Shown here: one piece after another, positions 41,781 to 60,964 of the stretch
How the letters are laid out: the number at the start of each line of letters is the position of its first letter
How positions within the stretch are numbered: the first letter of the stretch is position 1
Source: Rhizomicrobium sp.
GTDB lineage: Bacteria; Pseudomonadota; Alphaproteobacteria; Micropepsales; Micropepsaceae
Direction of reading: 5' to 3'
Assembly (NCBI GenBank): GCA_035548975.1
Contig: DASZRY010000001.1
Coordinates: 1,439 to 65,438 of the forward strand
Length of the DNA stretch: 64,000 bases
Made by a program: the position numbers and the translations under genes
The notes under the pieces: model-generated
Database searches by the model: none
What the model was told of the DNA's origin: nothing
What the model saw: only the letters and a program-made list of their open reading frames with translations

Positions 41781-41794
41781 TTGATCAGGATCAA
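41781..41794 (-). promoter_or_regulatory. Perfect FNR/FixK box upstream of the monooxygenase
   Basis: TTGATCAGGATCAA, centre ~61 nt upstream of GTG 41726. Confidence 0.82.
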
Positions 41795-49672: not shown

Positions 49673-49686
49673 TTGATAGCGGTCAG
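49673..49686 (-). promoter_or_regulatory. Degenerate FNR/FixK box proximal to ccoN
   Basis: TTGATAGCGGTCAG (two mismatches). Confidence 0.4.
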
Positions 49687-49757
49687 GCGAGGTAGAGTGC
49701 ATTGATCGAGTCCTTCACGTGACGTCCGGCATCGTGCGAAAATCGAGCCTTATGCGC

Positions 49758-49771
49758 TTGATTTGGATCAA
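49758..49771 (-). promoter_or_regulatory. Perfect FNR/FixK box upstream of ccoNOQP
   Basis: TTGATTTGGATCAA; cco operons are canonical FNR/FixK targets. Confidence 0.85.
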
Positions 49772-49833
49772 CGATTTCGAGAGTCGCGCAGGTCATGTTG
49801 TCGCTGCGCCACAGCGACATCTTTATCTTCCGA

Positions 49834-50112
49834 TTAATTGTGCACGGATGCAGGTGGCGCGATTCCGAAGGCCGAACAGATGCGGTTGTGACGGAGGCTT
49901 CCAAGCGCAGAATTCTGCGTCGAATAGGCATATGCAAGTCCGCCTCCCAGCAGGCACAACCCCAACGCCGCAGAGGCAATGGCCAGAAGGCCCATTCGTG
50001 GTAGGCCTTCACGCAGATGAAGAAATGTACTGTTCGAACGATCAATCTTCACGATGCCTGCAACGGCCGCGAGCTGCGTAAGAAGAAGTCCGATGAAGGT
50101 ACAGCAAAGCAT
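49834..50112 (-). CDS. Possible small two-TM membrane protein (or relic)
   Basis: Two hydrophobic stretches; lies just downstream of the perfect box at 50148; no family recognised. Confidence 0.35.
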   Translation of the reverse strand: MLCCTFIGLLLTQLAAVAGIVKIDRSNSTFLHLREGLPRMGLLAIASAALGLCLLGGGLAYAYSTQNSALGSLRHNRICSAFGIAPPASVHN

Positions 50113-50147: not shown

Positions 50148-50161
50148 TTGATTCGGATCAA
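50148..50161 (-). promoter_or_regulatory. Perfect FNR/FixK box
   Basis: TTGATTCGGATCAA in AT-rich intergenic DNA. Confidence 0.78.
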
Positions 50162-51767: not shown

Positions 51768-51781
51768 GTGACCTACATCAA
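51768..51781. promoter_or_regulatory. FNR/FixK-like box between divergent kinase and hsp20 genes
   Basis: GTGACCTACATCAA (perfect ATCAA half, variant left half), central in the 114-nt intergenic gap. Confidence 0.6.
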
Positions 51782-51840: not shown

Positions 51841-52365
51841 ATGGCTGAACTCGCAACCAAACTTCCAGCGAAATCCGAATCCCGTGGCATCTTTGCGACG
51901 GGCTTCAACCCGTTCCAGGCGTTGCACCGCGAAATCGATCGGCTGTTCGGCGAATTTGATGGGGACTTCTGGCGTGCGCCGTTCCGCGGCTCGGTTTTCG
52001 ACCGGCTTCCCATGACCCGCGTGGAAACCATCTCCATGCCGGCCGTCGATGTGGCGGAGAAGGATAATGCCTATGAAATCACGGCAGAACTGCCTGGAAT
52101 CGAGGAAAAAGACATCGACGTGAAACTTTCCAACGGCAGGCTGACGATCAAAGGTGAGAAGAAAGCCGAGAAAGAAGAGAAGAAAAAGGACTACTATCTT
52201 TCCGAACGGACTTACGGCTCCTTCGAGCGGAGTTTCTCCGTTCCCGATGGAATTGAGGCCGACAAGATCGCAGCGACATTCAAGAACGGCGTGCTTACCA
52301 TTACGATCCCGAAGTCGCCCGAGGCGCACAAAGAGGAAAAGAGGATCGCGGTGAAGGCTTCCTGA
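51841..52365 (+). CDS. Hsp20/alpha-crystallin family protein
   Basis: NPFQALHREIDRLF, PAVDVAE, ELPGI, SERTYGSFERSFSVP, ATFKNGVLTITIPK; AGGAGGAG RBS. Confidence 0.95.
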   Translation: MAELATKLPAKSESRGIFATGFNPFQALHREIDRLFGEFDGDFWRAPFRGSVFDRLPMTRVETISMPAVDVAEKDNAYEITAELPGIEEKDIDVKLSNGRLTIKGEKKAEKEEKKKDYYLSERTYGSFERSFSVPDGIEADKIAATFKNGVLTITIPKSPEAHKEEKRIAVKAS

Positions 52366-52372
52366 TGTGTAT

Positions 52373-52404
52373 GCCGGATGGCGGGCACTTGCCCGCCATC
52401 CGGC
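52373..52404. other. Perfect 14-bp GC-rich hairpin between hsp20 and the host-attachment gene
   Basis: gccggatggcgggc-actt-gcccgccatccggc; no U-tract, so more likely an mRNA stabilising/processing stem than a terminator. Confidence 0.6.
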
Positions 52405-52460
52405 GGGGAAGTTGGACCGTTCCCACGACGCTGGCGTATCCACTATCGCAGGAGGCATGA

Positions 52461-52913
52461 ATGCCCAAAATTCCACTCTCGAACGGCACATGGGTGGTTG
52501 CCTGCGACGGTGCCAAAGCCGTCGTCTTCGAGAATACGGGTGATTGGGAGTACCCCCATCTCGAATTGCGTCAGGAGATGGCACAACCCGATCCGCCCGA
52601 CCGGGAGATTTACACTGGCCCAAAGGGCCGCGTTTTCAATCGCGCCGATGGAGCAGGCAGCACAATCGAGCGCGATGATGCGCATCAGCGCGCCGAGATG
52701 CAGTTCATGAAGAGTGTCGCACACTATCTCGACAAGGCAGTGGCCGACGGCAAGATCAAAAAGATGGTCGTGGCGGCAGCGCCGCGCGCGCTCGGCGTTC
52801 TCAGGGCCGCGCTCTCCAAGCGGGCGCATGCCGCAATCATCGCCGAAATCGACCGGGACTATGTCAAGATGCCTGCCTATGAAATCGAGTCCGTATTGTC
52901 GAAGAAGCAATAG
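52461..52913 (+). CDS. Host attachment (AtsE-like / baeRF12) family protein, aeRF1-fold
   Basis: TWVVACDGAKAVVFEN, GRVF, F...VA..L, MVVAAAPRALGVLRAAL...I.AEIDRDYVK; no GGQ. Confidence 0.88.
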   Translation: MPKIPLSNGTWVVACDGAKAVVFENTGDWEYPHLELRQEMAQPDPPDREIYTGPKGRVFNRADGAGSTIERDDAHQRAEMQFMKSVAHYLDKAVADGKIKKMVVAAAPRALGVLRAALSKRAHAAIIAEIDRDYVKMPAYEIESVLSKKQ

Positions 52914-52939: not shown

Positions 52940-54307
52940 ATGACCGTGACGCTCACATTCCTTGGCGGCGTCGGGACTGTCACCGGTTCGAAATATCTTC
53001 TGGAGAATAACGGCCGTCGGTTGTTGGTCGATTGCGGGCTTTTCCAAGGCTACAAGACTTTGCGCCTGCGCAACTGGGCAGCGCTTCCCGTCGCAGCCAG
53101 CAGCATCGACGCAGTGGTCTTGACCCACGCCCATCTCGATCACACGGGATACCTGCCGTTGCTTGTCAAGCATGGATTTGACGGGCCAGTATTTTGCACC
53201 GACGCAACACAAGATTTGTGTTCCATCCTGCTTCCCGATTCCGCACACCTGCAGGAGCGAGATGCCGAATCCGCCAATCGTTTTGGCTATTCCAAGCATC
53301 ATCCTGCGTTGCCGCTCTATACGGAAGAAGATGCGCAGCGCGCGCTCAAGCTGTTGCAGAAGAAGAAAATCGGCGAAACCTTCAACGTTCTGGAAGATGC
53401 GCGCGTCAAGTTTACGCGTGCCGGGCACATTCTCGGCGCTTCTTCCATTTCGTTAAACTGGGGCGGTGTGACGATCGTCATTTCCGGCGATATCGGACGC
53501 TATGACGATCCTCTGATGCCTGATCCAGAAACGCCGGAGCGGGCCGATTATCTGTTGATGGAATCGACCTACGGCGACAGAGTTCACGAAAAACGGGATC
53601 CGGCGGACGCGCTGGCCGAAATAATAGAAAAAACAATTCGTCGCGGCGGCACCATTGTGGTTCCTGCATTTGCGGTGGGGCGAGCGCAGATCTTACTTTA
53701 CCACATCGGACGACTAAGAGCTGCAAAACGCCTGCCGGACTGGTTGCCCATTTATCTGGACAGCCCTATGGCCATTGAAGCAACCGAGATTTTTCAACGC
53801 CATTTTGACGATCAGAAGCTATCTTCCACCGAACTCCGCTCATTGGATTCAAGCGTACAATATGTTCATACGGGCCAGGAATCGAAGGATGTAACCGACA
53901 ACCCGATGCCGAAGATCGTTATCTCGGCAAGCGGCATGGCGACAGGCGGGCGGGTTCTGCACCATCTCAAGCAATATGCGCCGGATCCGAAGAATGCGAT
54001 CATTTTTGCGGGCTTTCAGGCTGGCGGTACGCGCGGCGCATCCATGGTGGCGGGCGCGGAAAGCGTGAAAATACATGGAGCCTATATTCCCGTTCGCGCC
54101 GACGTGCACAATTTGAACATGCTGTCCGCACACGCCGACCGCGACGAACTCCTTCGCTGGGCGGGAGCGATGAAGGCGCCACCGCGCACGACCTTCATTG
54201 TACATGGTGAACCGTCAGGCGCGGACGTTTTGCGTCATACACTCGAGGAAAAGCTGCATTGGAACTGCGTGGTGCCGGATTATCGCGAAACGGTGATCCT
54301 CTCATGA
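52940..54307 (+). CDS. MBL-fold beta-CASP ribonuclease (YSH1-like)
   Basis: THAHLDHTG, GDIG, ESTYGDR, PAFAVGRAQ, SGMATGGRVLHH, SAHAD, VHGE. Confidence 0.93.
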   Translation: MTVTLTFLGGVGTVTGSKYLLENNGRRLLVDCGLFQGYKTLRLRNWAALPVAASSIDAVVLTHAHLDHTGYLPLLVKHGFDGPVFCTDATQDLCSILLPDSAHLQERDAESANRFGYSKHHPALPLYTEEDAQRALKLLQKKKIGETFNVLEDARVKFTRAGHILGASSISLNWGGVTIVISGDIGRYDDPLMPDPETPERADYLLMESTYGDRVHEKRDPADALAEIIEKTIRRGGTIVVPAFAVGRAQILLYHIGRLRAAKRLPDWLPIYLDSPMAIEATEIFQRHFDDQKLSSTELRSLDSSVQYVHTGQESKDVTDNPMPKIVISASGMATGGRVLHHLKQYAPDPKNAIIFAGFQAGGTRGASMVAGAESVKIHGAYIPVRADVHNLNMLSAHADRDELLRWAGAMKAPPRTTFIVHGEPSGADVLRHTLEEKLHWNCVVPDYRETVILS

Positions 54308-55824
54308 TCGATCCGACCGGCCAGCATCCGCAACAACTGAAGGTGCGCCACCTGGGCATTGACACCCATTCCGATGCGGTAGTCTTCATGCGAAAGGATT
54401 CGCCGGTGTGCCGGTCGGAAGGTTTTGCCTCCCACAATCGCATCATGCTTTGCGCCGGGGACCGCTACATCATTGCGACGCTCTATCAGGTGGAATCCGG
54501 TCTGCTTGCGGCCGACGAAGCCGGCCTTTCAAGCGCCGCCTGGCAGCGCCTGGAGGCAAAGGATGGCGAAATTGTCATCGCGAAACACGCGCCGCCGCTG
54601 GAATCGCTGAGCCTCGTGCGCAGCCGCATTTACGGACACACGCTCGGCGATGACGCGTTGCATGCAATTGTTGCCGATATTGTGGACGGCCGCTATTCGA
54701 CCATCGAAATTTCGTCTTTTGTCACTACCTGCGCCACGCGTCCGCTAGTCCGTTCTGAAGTGCTGGGTCTCACGCGCGCCATGGTCCGGACCGGCGGGCG
54801 TCTTTCGTGGGATGTTCCGGTTGTCGCTGACAAGCATTCCGTCGGAGGCCTGCCCGGAAATCGTACAACGCCGATAATCGTTTCGATTATCGCGTCGCTT
54901 GGTCTTATTATGCCAAAAACGTCTTCTCGAGCCATCACATCGCCTGCTGGTACTGCCGACACAATGGAGACGCTTGCACCTGTCGTCTTGGATGCCAAAA
55001 AAATCCATGACGTTGTTGAACGCGAAGGCGGTTGCATCGCCTGGGGAGGGGCAGTCGGTCTCAGCCCGGCCGACGACATTCTGATTCGTGTCGAACGCGC
55101 GCTCGATCTCGATACCGAAGGTCAGATGATTGCCTCAGTCCTTTCGAAAAAGATCGCGGCCGGGTCAACACATCTGGTGCTCGATATTCCCGTGGGCCCC
55201 ACCGCGAAAGTTCGCAATGAAGATGCTGCCAAATCGATGACGGCCGGTCTCATGGCAGTCGCAGAATCGTTCGGCATTCGCACGCACATTGTCTGCGGGG
55301 ACGGTACGCAACCCATCGGCCGGGGGATAGGACCCGCACTTGAAGCAAGAGACGTGTTGAGCGTGCTCAAGAATGAAGCGCACGCGCCGCAGGATTTACG
55401 GCAACGCGCACTGAAATTGGCGGGAGCACTTCTCGAATTGGGCGGTAAGGCGCAAGCAGGAATGGGCGAGGACGTGGCGGCCAAGACATTGGATGACGGC
55501 AGAGCATGGAACAAATTCCAGCGCATCTGCGAAGCGCAGGGTGGGATGCGCACACCGCCGATCTCCAGCCATCGAAGGGCGTTATCGGCGGCTCGTCACG
55601 GCGCAGTTGGAACAATCGACAATCGCAAGATTGCGCGGCTGGCCAAACTCGCCGGTGCGCCCGAAGACAAGGCCGCAGGCGTCGAACTGCACGTCAAGGC
55701 CGGCGACACCGTGGTGCGCGGACAGCCACTTTGCACTGTCCACGCGGAATCGCCGGGCGAATTGGCGTATGCGCTGAATTATGCCGAGGCCAATCCCGAT
55801 ATCTTCCAGATCGAAGATATATGA
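54304..55824 (+). CDS. Thymidine phosphorylase family protein of the AMP-phosphorylase type
   Basis: N-terminal extension (LGIDT...VFMR) typical of AMP phosphorylases; DKHSVGGLPGNRTT, KTSSRAITSPAGTAD, SVLSKKIAAGS, GRGIGPALEA. Confidence 0.9.
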   Translation: MIDPTGQHPQQLKVRHLGIDTHSDAVVFMRKDSPVCRSEGFASHNRIMLCAGDRYIIATLYQVESGLLAADEAGLSSAAWQRLEAKDGEIVIAKHAPPLESLSLVRSRIYGHTLGDDALHAIVADIVDGRYSTIEISSFVTTCATRPLVRSEVLGLTRAMVRTGGRLSWDVPVVADKHSVGGLPGNRTTPIIVSIIASLGLIMPKTSSRAITSPAGTADTMETLAPVVLDAKKIHDVVEREGGCIAWGGAVGLSPADDILIRVERALDLDTEGQMIASVLSKKIAAGSTHLVLDIPVGPTAKVRNEDAAKSMTAGLMAVAESFGIRTHIVCGDGTQPIGRGIGPALEARDVLSVLKNEAHAPQDLRQRALKLAGALLELGGKAQAGMGEDVAAKTLDDGRAWNKFQRICEAQGGMRTPPISSHRRALSAARHGAVGTIDNRKIARLAKLAGAPEDKAAGVELHVKAGDTVVRGQPLCTVHAESPGELAYALNYAEANPDIFQIEDI

Positions 55825-56708
55825 GCGTGCCGCTACTCTTCGCTATGCCCGGCAACGAGGCGATGACGCAGCGGCTCGTGCCGCTCACGCGGGGCGATGT
55901 GGGAACACTGCAGGTTCGCAATTTTCCCGACCGGGAAACCTATTTGCGATTTCGCGACAAGCTTTCCGGCCGTTCGGTTGCTTTAGTTTGCACACTCGCA
56001 GATCCCGATCCCAAAATACTTCCGTTGCTTTTTGCGGCCGACACTGCGCGCGAGTTGGGCGCAGTAAAAGTGGGTCTCGTTGCACCATACCTTGCCTATA
56101 TGCGGCAGGACCGCCGTTTCCATCCGGGCGAAGCGATCACCTCGCAGCGATTTGCGGCAATCCTTTCGCAATCCCTCGATTGGCTTGTCACGATCGATCC
56201 GCATTTGCACCGCTACAAATCGCTTGCCGAACTCTACAGTATTCCCACCCGTGTTCTGCACAGCGGCACGACTCTGTCGAAATGGATTGTCGAAAAGGTC
56301 CCCAATCCGTTCATTGTTGGACCGGACGAGGAAAGTGAACAATGGGTGGCTGAGATCGCAAGAGAGTCCGGCGCACCATATAGCGTGTTGCATAAACGGC
56401 GACTGGAAGACGAACGGGTGGAGATCGACGTAGGCCACCTCGGACCTATTGGAAACAAAACACCGATTCTGGTGGACGATATCATCTCAAGCGGCGGCAC
56501 AATGCTGGAAGCTATTCGAAAGCTTGCGGAGCTCGTTCGAATTCCGCCAGTCTGCCTTGCCGTGCACGGGATATTTGCAAATCACTCGGACCAGCTTCTC
56601 GTCGATGCCGGCGCACGCTTGGTCACTACCGACAGCATTGAAAATCCTCACGCCGAAATCGGCATTGCTCCTTTGCTGGCGTCTGCCATCTCCGAATTCG
56701 TGTCTTGA
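55821..56708 (+). CDS. prs: Ribose-phosphate pyrophosphokinase (accessory, archaeal-like short type)
   Basis: FPDRETY, PYLAYMRQDRRF, DPHLH, GPDEES, HKRR, VDDIISSGGT. Confidence 0.9.
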   Translation: MSVPLLFAMPGNEAMTQRLVPLTRGDVGTLQVRNFPDRETYLRFRDKLSGRSVALVCTLADPDPKILPLLFAADTARELGAVKVGLVAPYLAYMRQDRRFHPGEAITSQRFAAILSQSLDWLVTIDPHLHRYKSLAELYSIPTRVLHSGTTLSKWIVEKVPNPFIVGPDEESEQWVAEIARESGAPYSVLHKRRLEDERVEIDVGHLGPIGNKTPILVDDIISSGGTMLEAIRKLAELVRIPPVCLAVHGIFANHSDQLLVDAGARLVTTDSIENPHAEIGIAPLLASAISEFVS

Positions 56709-56724
56709 AGAAGCGGGAATATTC

Positions 56725-57183
56725 GTGCCCCAGGTCAGCGCAGGAATTCTTCTCTACCGGAGAAAGGGCGGCGAATTGCAGGTGTTTCTTGTTCATCCGG
56801 GGGGTCCTTTCTGGGCGGGGAAAGATGTTGCCGCCTGGTCGATTCCCAAGGGCTTGATCGGCCCCGATGAAAACACGCTTGACGCCGCCAGACGCGAATT
56901 TTTCGAGGAAACCGGATTTCGCCTGGATGGCGAGGCTCATGAACTTGGCGTTTTCCGTCAACCAAGCGGAAAGCGAATCCATGTTTGGATCCAGAAAGGC
57001 AATTGCAATCCTTCGCGCCTCGTGAGCAACAGATTTAAGATGATTTGGCCGCCGAAGTCCGGCAAGACGAAGACTTTTCCCGAAGTCGATCGTGGCGGGT
57101 GGTTCAAAAGGCAAGAAGCCATGGCGAAAGTCGCCAAAGGCCAACGGCCAATCATCGAAGCGCTTTTCAAAAAGTTTGGCTAG
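56725..57183 (+). CDS. Nudix hydrolase
   Basis: Nudix box GLIGPDENTLDAARREFFEETG; HPGGPFW, FPEVDR; GTG start. Confidence 0.9.
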   Translation: MPQVSAGILLYRRKGGELQVFLVHPGGPFWAGKDVAAWSIPKGLIGPDENTLDAARREFFEETGFRLDGEAHELGVFRQPSGKRIHVWIQKGNCNPSRLVSNRFKMIWPPKSGKTKTFPEVDRGGWFKRQEAMAKVAKGQRPIIEALFKKFG

Positions 57184-60094: not shown

Positions 60095-60310
60095 TTAGTG
60101 TTTGCTCAGATGACGCTCGACATACCAAAGCGCTCCGAGCCAAACAGCGATGCCAAGGCCGGCTGCCGCCACCAGCGCATACAAGAGATCGACGTCGCCC
60201 GTAATGCTGAATACGGCTAGAAAAACGAAGGCGGCAAAGCCAATTCCGATGATATGAGCGATCCGGCGAAGGCGCCCTCTTGCTGCTGAATGTTCTGCGT
60301 CGGGCGTCAC
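60095..60310 (-). CDS. Small two-TM membrane protein
   Basis: 71 aa with two hydrophobic helices; follows a perfect FNR box. Confidence 0.6.
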   Translation of the reverse strand: MTPDAEHSAARGRLRRIAHIIGIGFAAFVFLAVFSITGDVDLLYALVAAAGLGIAVWLGALWYVERHLSKH

Positions 60311-60364
60311 ATGAGCCGATCGTTAAACTCCATCACCATTGTGGCGGTTAGATGCCGGAGGGCC

Positions 60365-60378
60365 TTGATTCAAATCAA
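60365..60378 (-). promoter_or_regulatory. Perfect FNR/FixK box
   Basis: TTGATTCAAATCAA, centre ~61 nt upstream of GTG 60310. Confidence 0.8.
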
Positions 60379-60499
60379 CCTTTTCGAGCCCTTTGGGCGT
60401 GAGCAGGTCTCAGGTCCATTGCAGGCGGAAGAGATCGTATTTCATCGCCGCAGTTACCGATTTCTGCTGCAGGAGTTTTCGGCGATTGAAGATGTGGCG

Positions 60500-60690
60500 C
60501 TTGTCATAATTCTGGCCGACGAACCAACCGGGATTCTCGATACCACATCGGTTGCCACTGTTCGGGACATCCCAATGGTTTTGGCACGCCAGCGCGGGCG
60601 AACATTCGCATTCGTTACCCACGGCCAGCAATTCGCAAGCGAGGCCGATCGCACGATCATGGTCACGCACGGCCGCATCGCGCGACCTTC
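60500..60690 (+). pseudogene. Remnant of a LolD/MacB-type ABC ATPase C-terminus
   Basis: ILADEPTGILD...LARQRGRTFAFVTHGQQFASEADRTIMVTHGRI (Walker B, D-loop and H-loop) without Walker A or a start. Confidence 0.7.
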
Positions 60691-60713
60691 ATGCCGACTT
60701 CAGCGTGGAGGCT

Positions 60714-60788
60714 TGGCTGGGGCGGAAGGATTCGAACCTTCGAATGCCGGAATCAAAATCCGGTGCCTTACCACTTGGCGACGCCCCA
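60714..60788 (-). tRNA. tRNA-Gln (TTG)
   Basis: TGGGGCGTCGCCAAGTGGTAAGGCACCGGATTTTGATTCCGGCATTCGAAGGTTCGAATCCTTCCGCCCCAGCCA, 75 nt with CCA. Confidence 0.97.
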
Positions 60789-60964
60789 ACAGGCCCGAAA
60801 CTCAAGGGCTTCCGGGCAGATCCTTCGGCCCGGGCGGGCGCGGAGGCGGCGGACCATAGGGCCTCACCCAGCGCCGTTCAATGTGCCCTAACCACTCCCA
60901 CGCCCAGGCACTGACATTCCGTCACAGGATTGCTAAGGAGGCCCGCCCCAAAGAGAGGCCATTC

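Follow-up and report, generated by a model that had tools for sequence, protein, structure and literature searches.

An AMP-phosphorylase-like gene coupled to a PRPP synthase paralogue and a beta-CASP ribonuclease gene in Rhizomicrobium sp.

A four-gene unit and its products

Within the genome of Rhizomicrobium sp. (Alphaproteobacteria, Micropepsaceae; assembly GCA_035548975.1), a stretch of 64,000 nucleotides (contig DASZRY010000001.1, positions 1,439 to 65,438, here called the window) carries a compact set of genes for a putative beta-CASP ribonuclease (RNase), a phosphorylase resembling the archaeal enzymes that act on AMP and other nucleoside monophosphates (NMPs), a paralogue of phosphoribosyl pyrophosphate (PRPP) synthase (PRS), and a Nudix hydrolase. 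The absence of the archaeal downstream enzymes, together with the near-constant presence of the PRS paralogue beside the phosphorylase, points to an undescribed bacterial activity on ribose-1,5-bisphosphate (R15P) or PRPP. The genes of the set, which spans 52940-57183, are the following.

52940-54307, plus strand: beta-CASP RNase gene (Pfam domains Lactamase_B, Beta-Casp and RMMBL)
54304-55824, plus strand: AMP/NMP-phosphorylase-like gene (Pfam domains Glycos_trans_3N, Glycos_transf_3 and PYNP_C)
55821-56708, plus strand: PRS-like gene, the PRS paralogue (Pfam domains Pribosyltran_N and Pribosyltran)
56725-57183, plus strand: Nudix hydrolase gene (Pfam domain NUDIX, 57.7 bits)

The TGA of the nuclease gene and the ATG of the phosphorylase gene share the tetranucleotide ATGA, the phosphorylase and PRS-like genes are joined likewise, and the Nudix gene, whose GTG start at 56725 lies 16 nt past the PRS-like stop and whose full length is spanned by homologues of 152-154 aa, is probably co-transcribed with the unit in this genome. 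The coordinates, both overlaps, the 16-nt gap and the domains had been given in this form by a first-pass annotation of the window, and its remark that the catalytic motifs are intact holds, by alignment or reading, for the nuclease, phosphorylase, PRS-like and Nudix proteins.

The phosphorylase is annotated in databases as a 'thymidine phosphorylase family protein', and its nearest named relatives, at ~65% identity, come from metagenome-assembled genomes of Rhizomicrobium and Xanthobacteraceae. The cut-offs of NF003338 (668.7 bits, cut-off 434) and TIGR02645 (590.4 bits, cut-off 434.6) are both passed, and the protein stays under those of all DeoA and Pdp models (NF004490, 195 bits against 269; TIGR02644, 185 against 409; TIGR02643, 127 against 571; NF004747, 142 against 559). 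The first-pass annotation had called it an AMP phosphorylase and asked for a model comparison with DeoA, which bears this out: the AMP-phosphorylase model TIGR03327 gives 487.5 bits as against 127-195 for the thymidine and pyrimidine models, and identity is 44% to the enzyme of T. kodakarensis as against 27% to E. coli DeoA. The nearest solved structures are likewise those of the T. kodakarensis AMP/NMP phosphorylase (4GA4-4GA6). When the window protein and 21 bacterial relatives were aligned with the archaeal enzyme and DeoA, the archaeal enzyme agreed with the bacterial clade at 103 of 153 columns invariant in that clade, and DeoA at 60 of 145. The loops DKHSVGGLPGNRT and PKTSSRAITSPAGTAD agree with the T. 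kodakarensis enzyme, and HS(V/I)GG(L/V)PGN(R/K)T and PKTSSRAITSxAGTAD are common to the phosphorylase and 4GA5, the phosphate and ribose loops being archaeal in pattern. The extra N-terminal domain is also present, as residues 11-498 match positions 1-488 of the TIGR03327 model, whereas DeoA aligns from about residue 100. Judged by sequence, then, the protein is of the archaeal AMP/NMP-phosphorylase type and not DeoA, and by homology it would cleave NMPs with inorganic phosphate (Pi) to free base and R15P.

The PRS paralogue passes the cut-off of NF005537, the PRK07199 subfamily (350.2 against 322 bits), and is not a class I enzyme (NF002320, 117.6 against 297 bits). A canonical class I prs, 25% identical to the paralogue, is found in the same genome on another contig (C75). 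The closest structures are the class III PRPP synthases of Methanocaldococcus jannaschii (1U9Y), Sulfolobus (4TWB) and Thermoplasma (3LPN), which have the catalytic motifs in common with the paralogue (FPDxE, RQD, DPH, K-x-R and DDIISSGGT); the paralogue differs from them in forming a separate subfamily with invariant residues of its own, a phosphorylase as partner, and a canonical prs alongside. Across 44 members of the family no PRS catalytic residue varies (F35, D37, E39, R95-Q96-D97, H128, D169, K192, R194, D219-D220). Further invariants are specific to it, namely L129-H130-R131 by the catalytic His128, E171-S172 and Q174-W175 by the PD motif and Mg site, and D197, and these may leave room for an altered substrate.

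The nuclease is most similar, among solved structures, to the T. thermophilus RNase TTHA0252 (2DKF, 268 bits). The two proteins have the same domain set, and all metal-binding and beta-CASP motifs align (HAHLDH, SGDIG, ESTYGD, LHHLK, SAHAD and VHGE). It is thus a predicted beta-CASP ribonuclease of the TTHA0252 type, with an RNase activity suggested by homology; unlike TTHA0252, it is translationally coupled to nucleotide-catabolic genes in a low-oxygen setting. In one related locus (L085:6636-8004) gene calling splits the beta-CASP gene into pieces of 188 and 263 aa, which may reflect a frameshift or an assembly error.

Conservation of the phosphorylase-PRS pair and the missing users of R15P

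Related loci were collected with a degenerate-pattern scan, one genome per species, which gave at least 598 loci encoding a relative of the phosphorylase. The best 80 of these were used; they cover Alpha-, Beta- and Gammaproteobacteria and a few other bins, and their neighbouring genes were counted by phmmer against six-frame open reading frames (ORFs). The counts below give the loci that hold each gene and those in which its distance from the phosphorylase gene is at most 3.5 kb.

PRS-like: 73 of 80 loci, 63 within 3.5 kb
beta-CASP: 60 of 80 loci, 59 within 3.5 kb
phosphoketolase-like: 21 of 80 loci, 19 within 3.5 kb
acetate kinase: 12 of 80 loci, 5 within 3.5 kb
type II GAPDH: 6 of 80 loci, 3 within 3.5 kb
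hsp20: 5 of 80 loci, 1 within 3.5 kb
baeRF12: 4 of 80 loci, 3 within 3.5 kb
Nudix: 0 of 80 loci, 0 within 3.5 kb

Counts of 73 and 60 loci for the PRS-like and beta-CASP genes put the arrangement far above chance. The nuclease falls into two subclades, one encoded upstream and the other downstream of the phosphorylase-PRS pair, and many genomes carry the bare pair; the pair is the conserved core of the module. The Nudix protein has an intact Nudix box (G-x5-E-x7-REFFEETG) and weak similarity to characterised enzymes. It had been put forward in the first-pass annotation as a possible handler of R15P, and this suggestion is not sustained: none of the related loci has the gene, and its homologues elsewhere occupy unrelated gene contexts, so it was set aside as an R15P or PRPP enzyme of the pathway.

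The coupling of the two core genes was also examined across 301 evenly drawn Pseudomonadota genomes, with family cut-offs applied. The phosphorylase occurs in 35 of these, roughly one in eight, and the PRS paralogue subfamily in 33; both are present in 32 genomes, the phosphorylase alone in three and the paralogue alone in one. The two genes are neighbours in 29 of these 32 genomes (coordinates read by eye). Fisher's test of co-occurrence gives 1.5e-38, a figure that overstates independence because one family supplies 14 of the genomes. The first-pass view of the PRS as a paralogue and partner of the phosphorylase thus gains ground: 32 of the 36 genomes that hold either gene hold both, and with a separate canonical prs elsewhere in the genome the paralogue is a dedicated partner of the phosphorylase. 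An R15P isomerase above cut-off was found in none of the 301 genomes. The archaeal controls (M. jannaschii, H. volcanii and M. acetivorans) show the reverse, as all have the phosphorylase and the isomerase and none has a member of the PRS subfamily above cut-off; the bacterial phosphorylase has therefore exchanged partners. This exchange is the strongest result of the analysis and the main reason to think that the PRS paralogue acts on the product or the substrate of the phosphorylase. Certain apparent gene fusions, of the kind used as Rosetta-stone evidence (G241, 1252 aa; G236, 738 aa; G129, 747 aa), were discarded as chance GC-rich extensions or overlapping separate genes, and the Burkholderia cenocepacia lxa locus was dropped as a home of the triad, none of the three genes being in the paper.

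The known users of R15P are missing from the genome to which the window belongs (97% complete, 2.9 Mb, 127 contigs). It encodes neither a RuBisCO large subunit nor an R15P isomerase, its sole IF-2B protein being MtnA (TIGR00512, 423 bits; TIGR00511, 163 bits where the cut-off is 314), and no PhnN above cut-off, the best match reaching 54.9 against 156 bits. The first-pass annotation had seen neither isomerase nor RuBisCO in the window, and the absence extends to the whole genome, as does that of phnN; a standard isomerase/RuBisCO pathway elsewhere in the genome, which it had named beforehand as counting against its proposal, was looked for and not found. Nor were DeoB, DeoC, DeoD, Amn, type II GAPDH, phosphoketolase or acetate kinase detected there by phmmer on six-frame ORFs, a search that did recover apt and the canonical prs. 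Absences were rechecked in this manner because tblastn proved insensitive: with DeoA as query it missed the phosphorylase gene, which blastp on the translated protein finds at 4e-29, so that absences resting on tblastn would be untrustworthy here. E. coli DeoA as a query matches only the phosphorylase gene studied here in this genome.

Carbon-metabolic genes recur near the pair in other lineages. The phosphoketolase-like protein is very divergent (~795 aa and 118 bits against cut-offs of 777-1518, for example L026:6214-8601) and may have a substrate other than xylulose 5-phosphate or fructose 6-phosphate. Its gene lies inside the operon, in the order AckA-XFP-nuclease-phosphorylase-PRS in L006 and PRS-XFP-nuclease-phosphorylase in L025, L034, L040 and L041, and is often accompanied by an acetate kinase gene; the GAPDH of the six loci counted above is of the archaeal type II. 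In one genus of family f33 the PRS-like gene overlaps at its end with a gene for a Na+/Pi cotransporter (L095:2849-4528 and L097:3937-5664, in the order phosphorylase-PRS-NaPi). The cotransporter gene was not seen after the pair in other genera, and as a neighbour it fits a phosphate-consuming reaction.

Low-oxygen setting and possible fates of R15P

To the left of the nuclease gene the unit reaches beyond the four genes, and the features on this side are as follows.

52461-52913, plus strand: baeRF12/Host_attach gene for a bacterial aeRF1-like protein of a single domain (PF18856, 128 bits; PF10116, 110 bits)
52375-52405, plus strand: perfect 13-bp GC-rich hairpin with no T tract, between hsp20 and baeRF12 (sequence reading)
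51841-52365, plus strand: hsp20, small heat-shock protein gene (Pfam HSP20, 103.9 bits)
51768-51781, no strand assigned: FNR/FixK-type box GTGACCTACATCAA, with one mismatch to TTGAY-N4-RTCAA
50167-51726, minus strand: gene for a fusion of an APH-type kinase and an AAA_33 P-loop kinase domain, transcribed away from hsp20 with the 51768 box in between

The end of baeRF12 is 26 nt from the start of the nuclease gene, and transcription of the unit probably begins with hsp20. The operon drawn in the first-pass annotation is therefore kept in its four genes and revised in its left limit, with baeRF12 and, probably, hsp20 added upstream, and the Nudix gene does not stand as a conserved member. The hairpin between hsp20 and baeRF12 is absent from terminator predictions and may serve for attenuation, processing or stabilisation of the transcript. 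The release-factor paper of Burroughs and Aravind ties the baeRF families to hibernation factors; it leaves the phosphorylase/PRS context unmentioned and was not retained as a source for the locus. A close relative likewise has a member of the baeRF12 family in its FixLJ-FixK island.

Several observations place the unit in a low-oxygen setting. The window holds the cbb3 oxidase genes ccoNOQP/GHIS, with perfect FNR boxes; perfect boxes occur at 41781, 49758, 50148 and 60365, and boxes with at most one mismatch to TTGAY-N4-RTCAA number seven against 1.97 expected. Among related loci a box was found at 10 of 59 operon starts against about three expected, a modest signal given that the starts were crudely set. 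In the close relatives L083 and L085, whose phosphorylases are 77% and 70% identical to that of the window, the operon adjoins genes for a PAS histidine kinase, FixJ-type and Crp/Fnr regulators, and Usp, and further neighbours are PNPOx, MgtC/DUF4010, baeRF12 and pta-ackA, the last of which adjoins the operon in L085.

Regulation has been shown in Bradyrhizobium (B. diazoefficiens), where bll3117-bll3116-bll3115 form a predicted operon with a FixK2 box at -74 and encode a thymidine phosphorylase family protein, a ribose-phosphate pyrophosphokinase and an MBL-fold hydrolase (PMC9104804, PMC6515984). At 0.5% O2 these genes are down 6.6- to 30.6-fold in a fixK2 deletion, the three proteins are up in microoxia, and the same FixK2 and microoxia lists include a phosphoketolase-acetate kinase pair, a 'translational machinery protein' and a 'host attachment protein' (PMC9104804, PMC6515984). 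The same three protein families in one predicted operon are thus met in both organisms, an orthology that rests on product names and gene order. The phosphorylase-PRS-nuclease order of B. diazoefficiens is also that of G056 and G172, whereas the window has the nuclease first; the nuclease of the B. diazoefficiens type belongs to a different beta-CASP subclade, ~40% identical to that of the window, and the window unit, unlike the B. diazoefficiens operon, is headed by baeRF12 and ends with the Nudix gene. Judging from boxes and neighbours, the window unit would likewise be under FixK/FNR control. Since the genes are FixK2-controlled in a nitrogen-fixing symbiont and lie in FixLJ-FixK islands of relatives, the module has a bearing on microoxic survival in nodules, biofilms and sediments.

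On the established ground of gene content, conservation, co-occurrence, the absence of known R15P users, and regulation in the model organism, the unit is tentatively read, with a rough probability of 0.4, as the local copy of a widespread low-oxygen module that takes RNA to NMPs and these to base and R15P, the PRS paralogue standing where archaea have isomerase and RuBisCO. The RNase, under FixK/FNR control, would degrade RNA to 5'-NMPs, the RNA probably coming from ribosomes out of service, because baeRF12 heads the unit. The phosphorylase would convert NMP and Pi to base and R15P, and the PRS paralogue would take R15P on, the likeliest product being PRPP, which could be reused with the freed bases since apt is present in the genome. 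In lineages that bear the phosphoketolase, pentose might also be spent for acetyl phosphate and ATP, as is suggested by the phosphoketolase gene, often with acetate kinase, in the same operon in about a quarter of loci. That the paralogue handles R15P is suggested by the genomic coupling, the lack of another R15P user, and its own invariant residues. The phosphorylase type, the absent R15P users and the PRS as dedicated partner are the parts of the first-pass reading that this account retains, and the Nudix protein as a conserved pathway member (0 of 80 loci) is the part that it gives up. The low-oxygen setting, baeRF12 at the head, the recurring phosphoketolase and acetate kinase partners, and the wide spread of a three-gene unit already listed as a FixK2 target had escaped that reading. 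The pattern is clean and general; the key chemistry is put forward as a hypothesis.

R15P metabolism is placed in the archaea, as the NMP shunt or pentose bisphosphate pathway, or treated in E. coli as an offshoot of phosphonate utilisation. The window unit resembles the archaeal shunt of T. kodakarensis in phosphorylase type, N-terminal domain and active-site loops, and the expected product is again R15P. The archaeal shunt has the isomerase and type III RuBisCO, whereas the window genome has neither and the 301 Pseudomonadota lack the isomerase; conversely, the window unit has the PRS paralogue as constant partner and a hypoxia-controlled setting, and the archaeal controls are without the paralogue. 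By equivalog score and by the missing isomerase/RuBisCO partnership the unit falls outside the archaeal shunt. In E. coli, PhnN converts R15P and ATP to PRPP and ADP, a possible fate of R15P taken up in the discussion of PMC9700705; with PhnN absent here, such a step would fall to an unrelated protein of PRS fold. The gene set itself is not new, being annotated in thousands of genomes and a published FixK2 target. In the literature that could be reached, most subscription journals lying outside it, no paper was found that gives the set a biochemical function or notes the exchange of partners, and bacterial nucleotide breakdown probably includes a step that has yet to be described. The pattern points to a defined route of RNA disposal in low-oxygen dormancy.

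A number of points weigh against this account. The phosphorylase is below the TIGR03327 equivalog cut-off (487.5 against 535 bits), and the accessible literature, again without most subscription journals, contains no assay of any enzyme from this bacterial clade. Every residue of an ordinary PRPP synthase is kept in the PRS paralogue. PRPP synthase chemistry is an attack by the C1 hydroxyl of ribose-5-phosphate, so the geometry would have to differ for R15P to be phosphorylated at its 1-phosphate. Orthologues of the nuclease occur without the pair in 7 sampled genomes, the phosphorylase lacks an adjacent paralogue in three sampled genomes and in locus L083, and the window genome has no phosphoketolase or acetate kinase of its own. 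As to regulation, control by FixK/FNR is deduced for the window unit from boxes and neighbours; the only FNR-like box upstream (51768-51781) departs from the consensus at one position and precedes hsp20, the hairpin standing in between, and no FNR/FixK box was found directly before baeRF12.

The retained catalytic residues are the starting point of the explanation that the paralogue is a plain, non-allosteric PRPP synthase of class III type, which sustains PRPP when the class I enzyme is shut by low energy charge and performs no R15P-to-PRPP step. The phosphorylase would then clear or recycle the AMP made by the synthase (AMP + Pi to adenine + R15P) or trim the adenylate pool, a task that belongs to AMP nucleosidase in E. 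coli. This would agree with motifs invariant throughout the family, with the class III synthases as nearest structures, with a canonical prs and no Amn in the genome, and with the low-oxygen setting. It would, however, leave R15P without a fate in a genome that has no isomerase, RuBisCO, PhnN or DeoB, and would explain neither the family-specific active-site invariants, nor the near-obligate co-occurrence of the two genes, nor the RNase partner; for these reasons it is considered unlikely, though a serious contender. A different use of the same fold would run the PRS chemistry in reverse, R15P and AMP or ADP giving ribose-5-phosphate and ADP or ATP, so that the bond energy of phosphorolysis is kept as phosphoanhydride and ribose-5-phosphate enters the pentose phosphate pathway or is consumed by phosphoketolase and acetate kinase, in effect an RNA fermentation for maintenance at low oxygen. 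The recurrence of phosphoketolase-like, acetate kinase and type II GAPDH genes in or next to the operon, with pta-ackA beside it in L085, would suit such a scheme, the reverse reaction would keep the attack geometry, as deduced from the established PRS mechanism, and the extra invariant His and Arg adjoin the catalytic His. Yet transfer of the ribosyl 1-phosphate to AMP is uphill at standard conditions (an estimate from textbook values), the window genome has neither phosphoketolase nor acetate kinase, and the reaction has no biochemical precedent, all of which make this scheme improbable. Little better can be said of the wider proposal of a proteobacterial, RuBisCO-independent 'NMP shunt' in which a PRS-fold enzyme handles R15P and, in its boldest form, passes the 1-phosphate to AMP or ADP with a gain of ATP while ribose-5-phosphate is fermented through phosphoketolase and acetate kinase; it too is rather improbable, and if it were true ribosomal RNA would be an energy reserve in hypoxic dormancy.

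Other explanations turn on the identity of the phosphorylase. It might instead be a PRPP-dependent phosphoribosyltransferase of TrpD type that draws on PRPP from the paralogue for the ribosylation of a base or some other acceptor, since it has its fold family in common with anthranilate phosphoribosyltransferase (a weak TIGR01245 match), has a PRPP synthase homologue as constant neighbour, and contains a loop, RAITSPAGTAD, that presumably resembles the ribose-phosphate loop of TrpD. The 44% identity to a proven NMP phosphorylase with the phosphate loops in common, the mere 36.6 bits of the TrpD model, and the Na+/Pi cotransporter after the pair in one genus, which fits the use of Pi, all speak against a transferase and make it distinctly unlikely. 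Ordinary salvage of pyrimidine nucleosides, with a thymidine or pyrimidine phosphorylase next to prs by chance, is what the database name and the NP-II Pfam domains would suggest; it is very unlikely in view of scores of 127-195 bits against thymidine and pyrimidine cut-offs of 269-571, the extra N-terminal domain, a genome without DeoB or DeoC for (deoxy)ribose-1-phosphate, and the strict coupling to a special PRS subfamily. The union of a nuclease resembling Cas14 with nucleotide-degrading enzymes could also call to mind an anti-phage system that depletes nucleotides, but PADLOC gives no match for six proteins, the context is chromosomal, respiratory and stress-related, and the orthologous operon is FixK2-dependent, so that a role in defence is scarcely credible.

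Flanking genes and minor observations

To the left of the unit lie ccoNOQP, ccoG and a copper ATPase gene, and from the right side a Lon protease gene converges on it. The APH/AAA_33 kinase was tried as a sugar-phosphate kinase of the pathway and rejected, its gene being present in 1 of the 80 related loci and not near the pair. Between this kinase gene and ccoN there is an ORF of 120 aa (49683-50045, minus strand) that has no family match on either strand; the perfect FNR box at 50148-50161 lies ~100 nt upstream of it. A protein of 453 aa with no Pfam or NCBIfam match (L006:12625-13986) is encoded in 8 of the 80 loci, and in 4 of these 8 the phosphorylase gene is no more than 3.5 kb away. Finally, an ORF of 189 aa to the right of the unit (60290-60859, plus strand), with no Pfam match, contains the perfect FNR box at 60365-60378 inside its 5' part, and its true start is for that reason probably downstream; homologues lie at most 3.5 kb from the phosphorylase gene in three other loci, which makes it a candidate member of the low-oxygen set.

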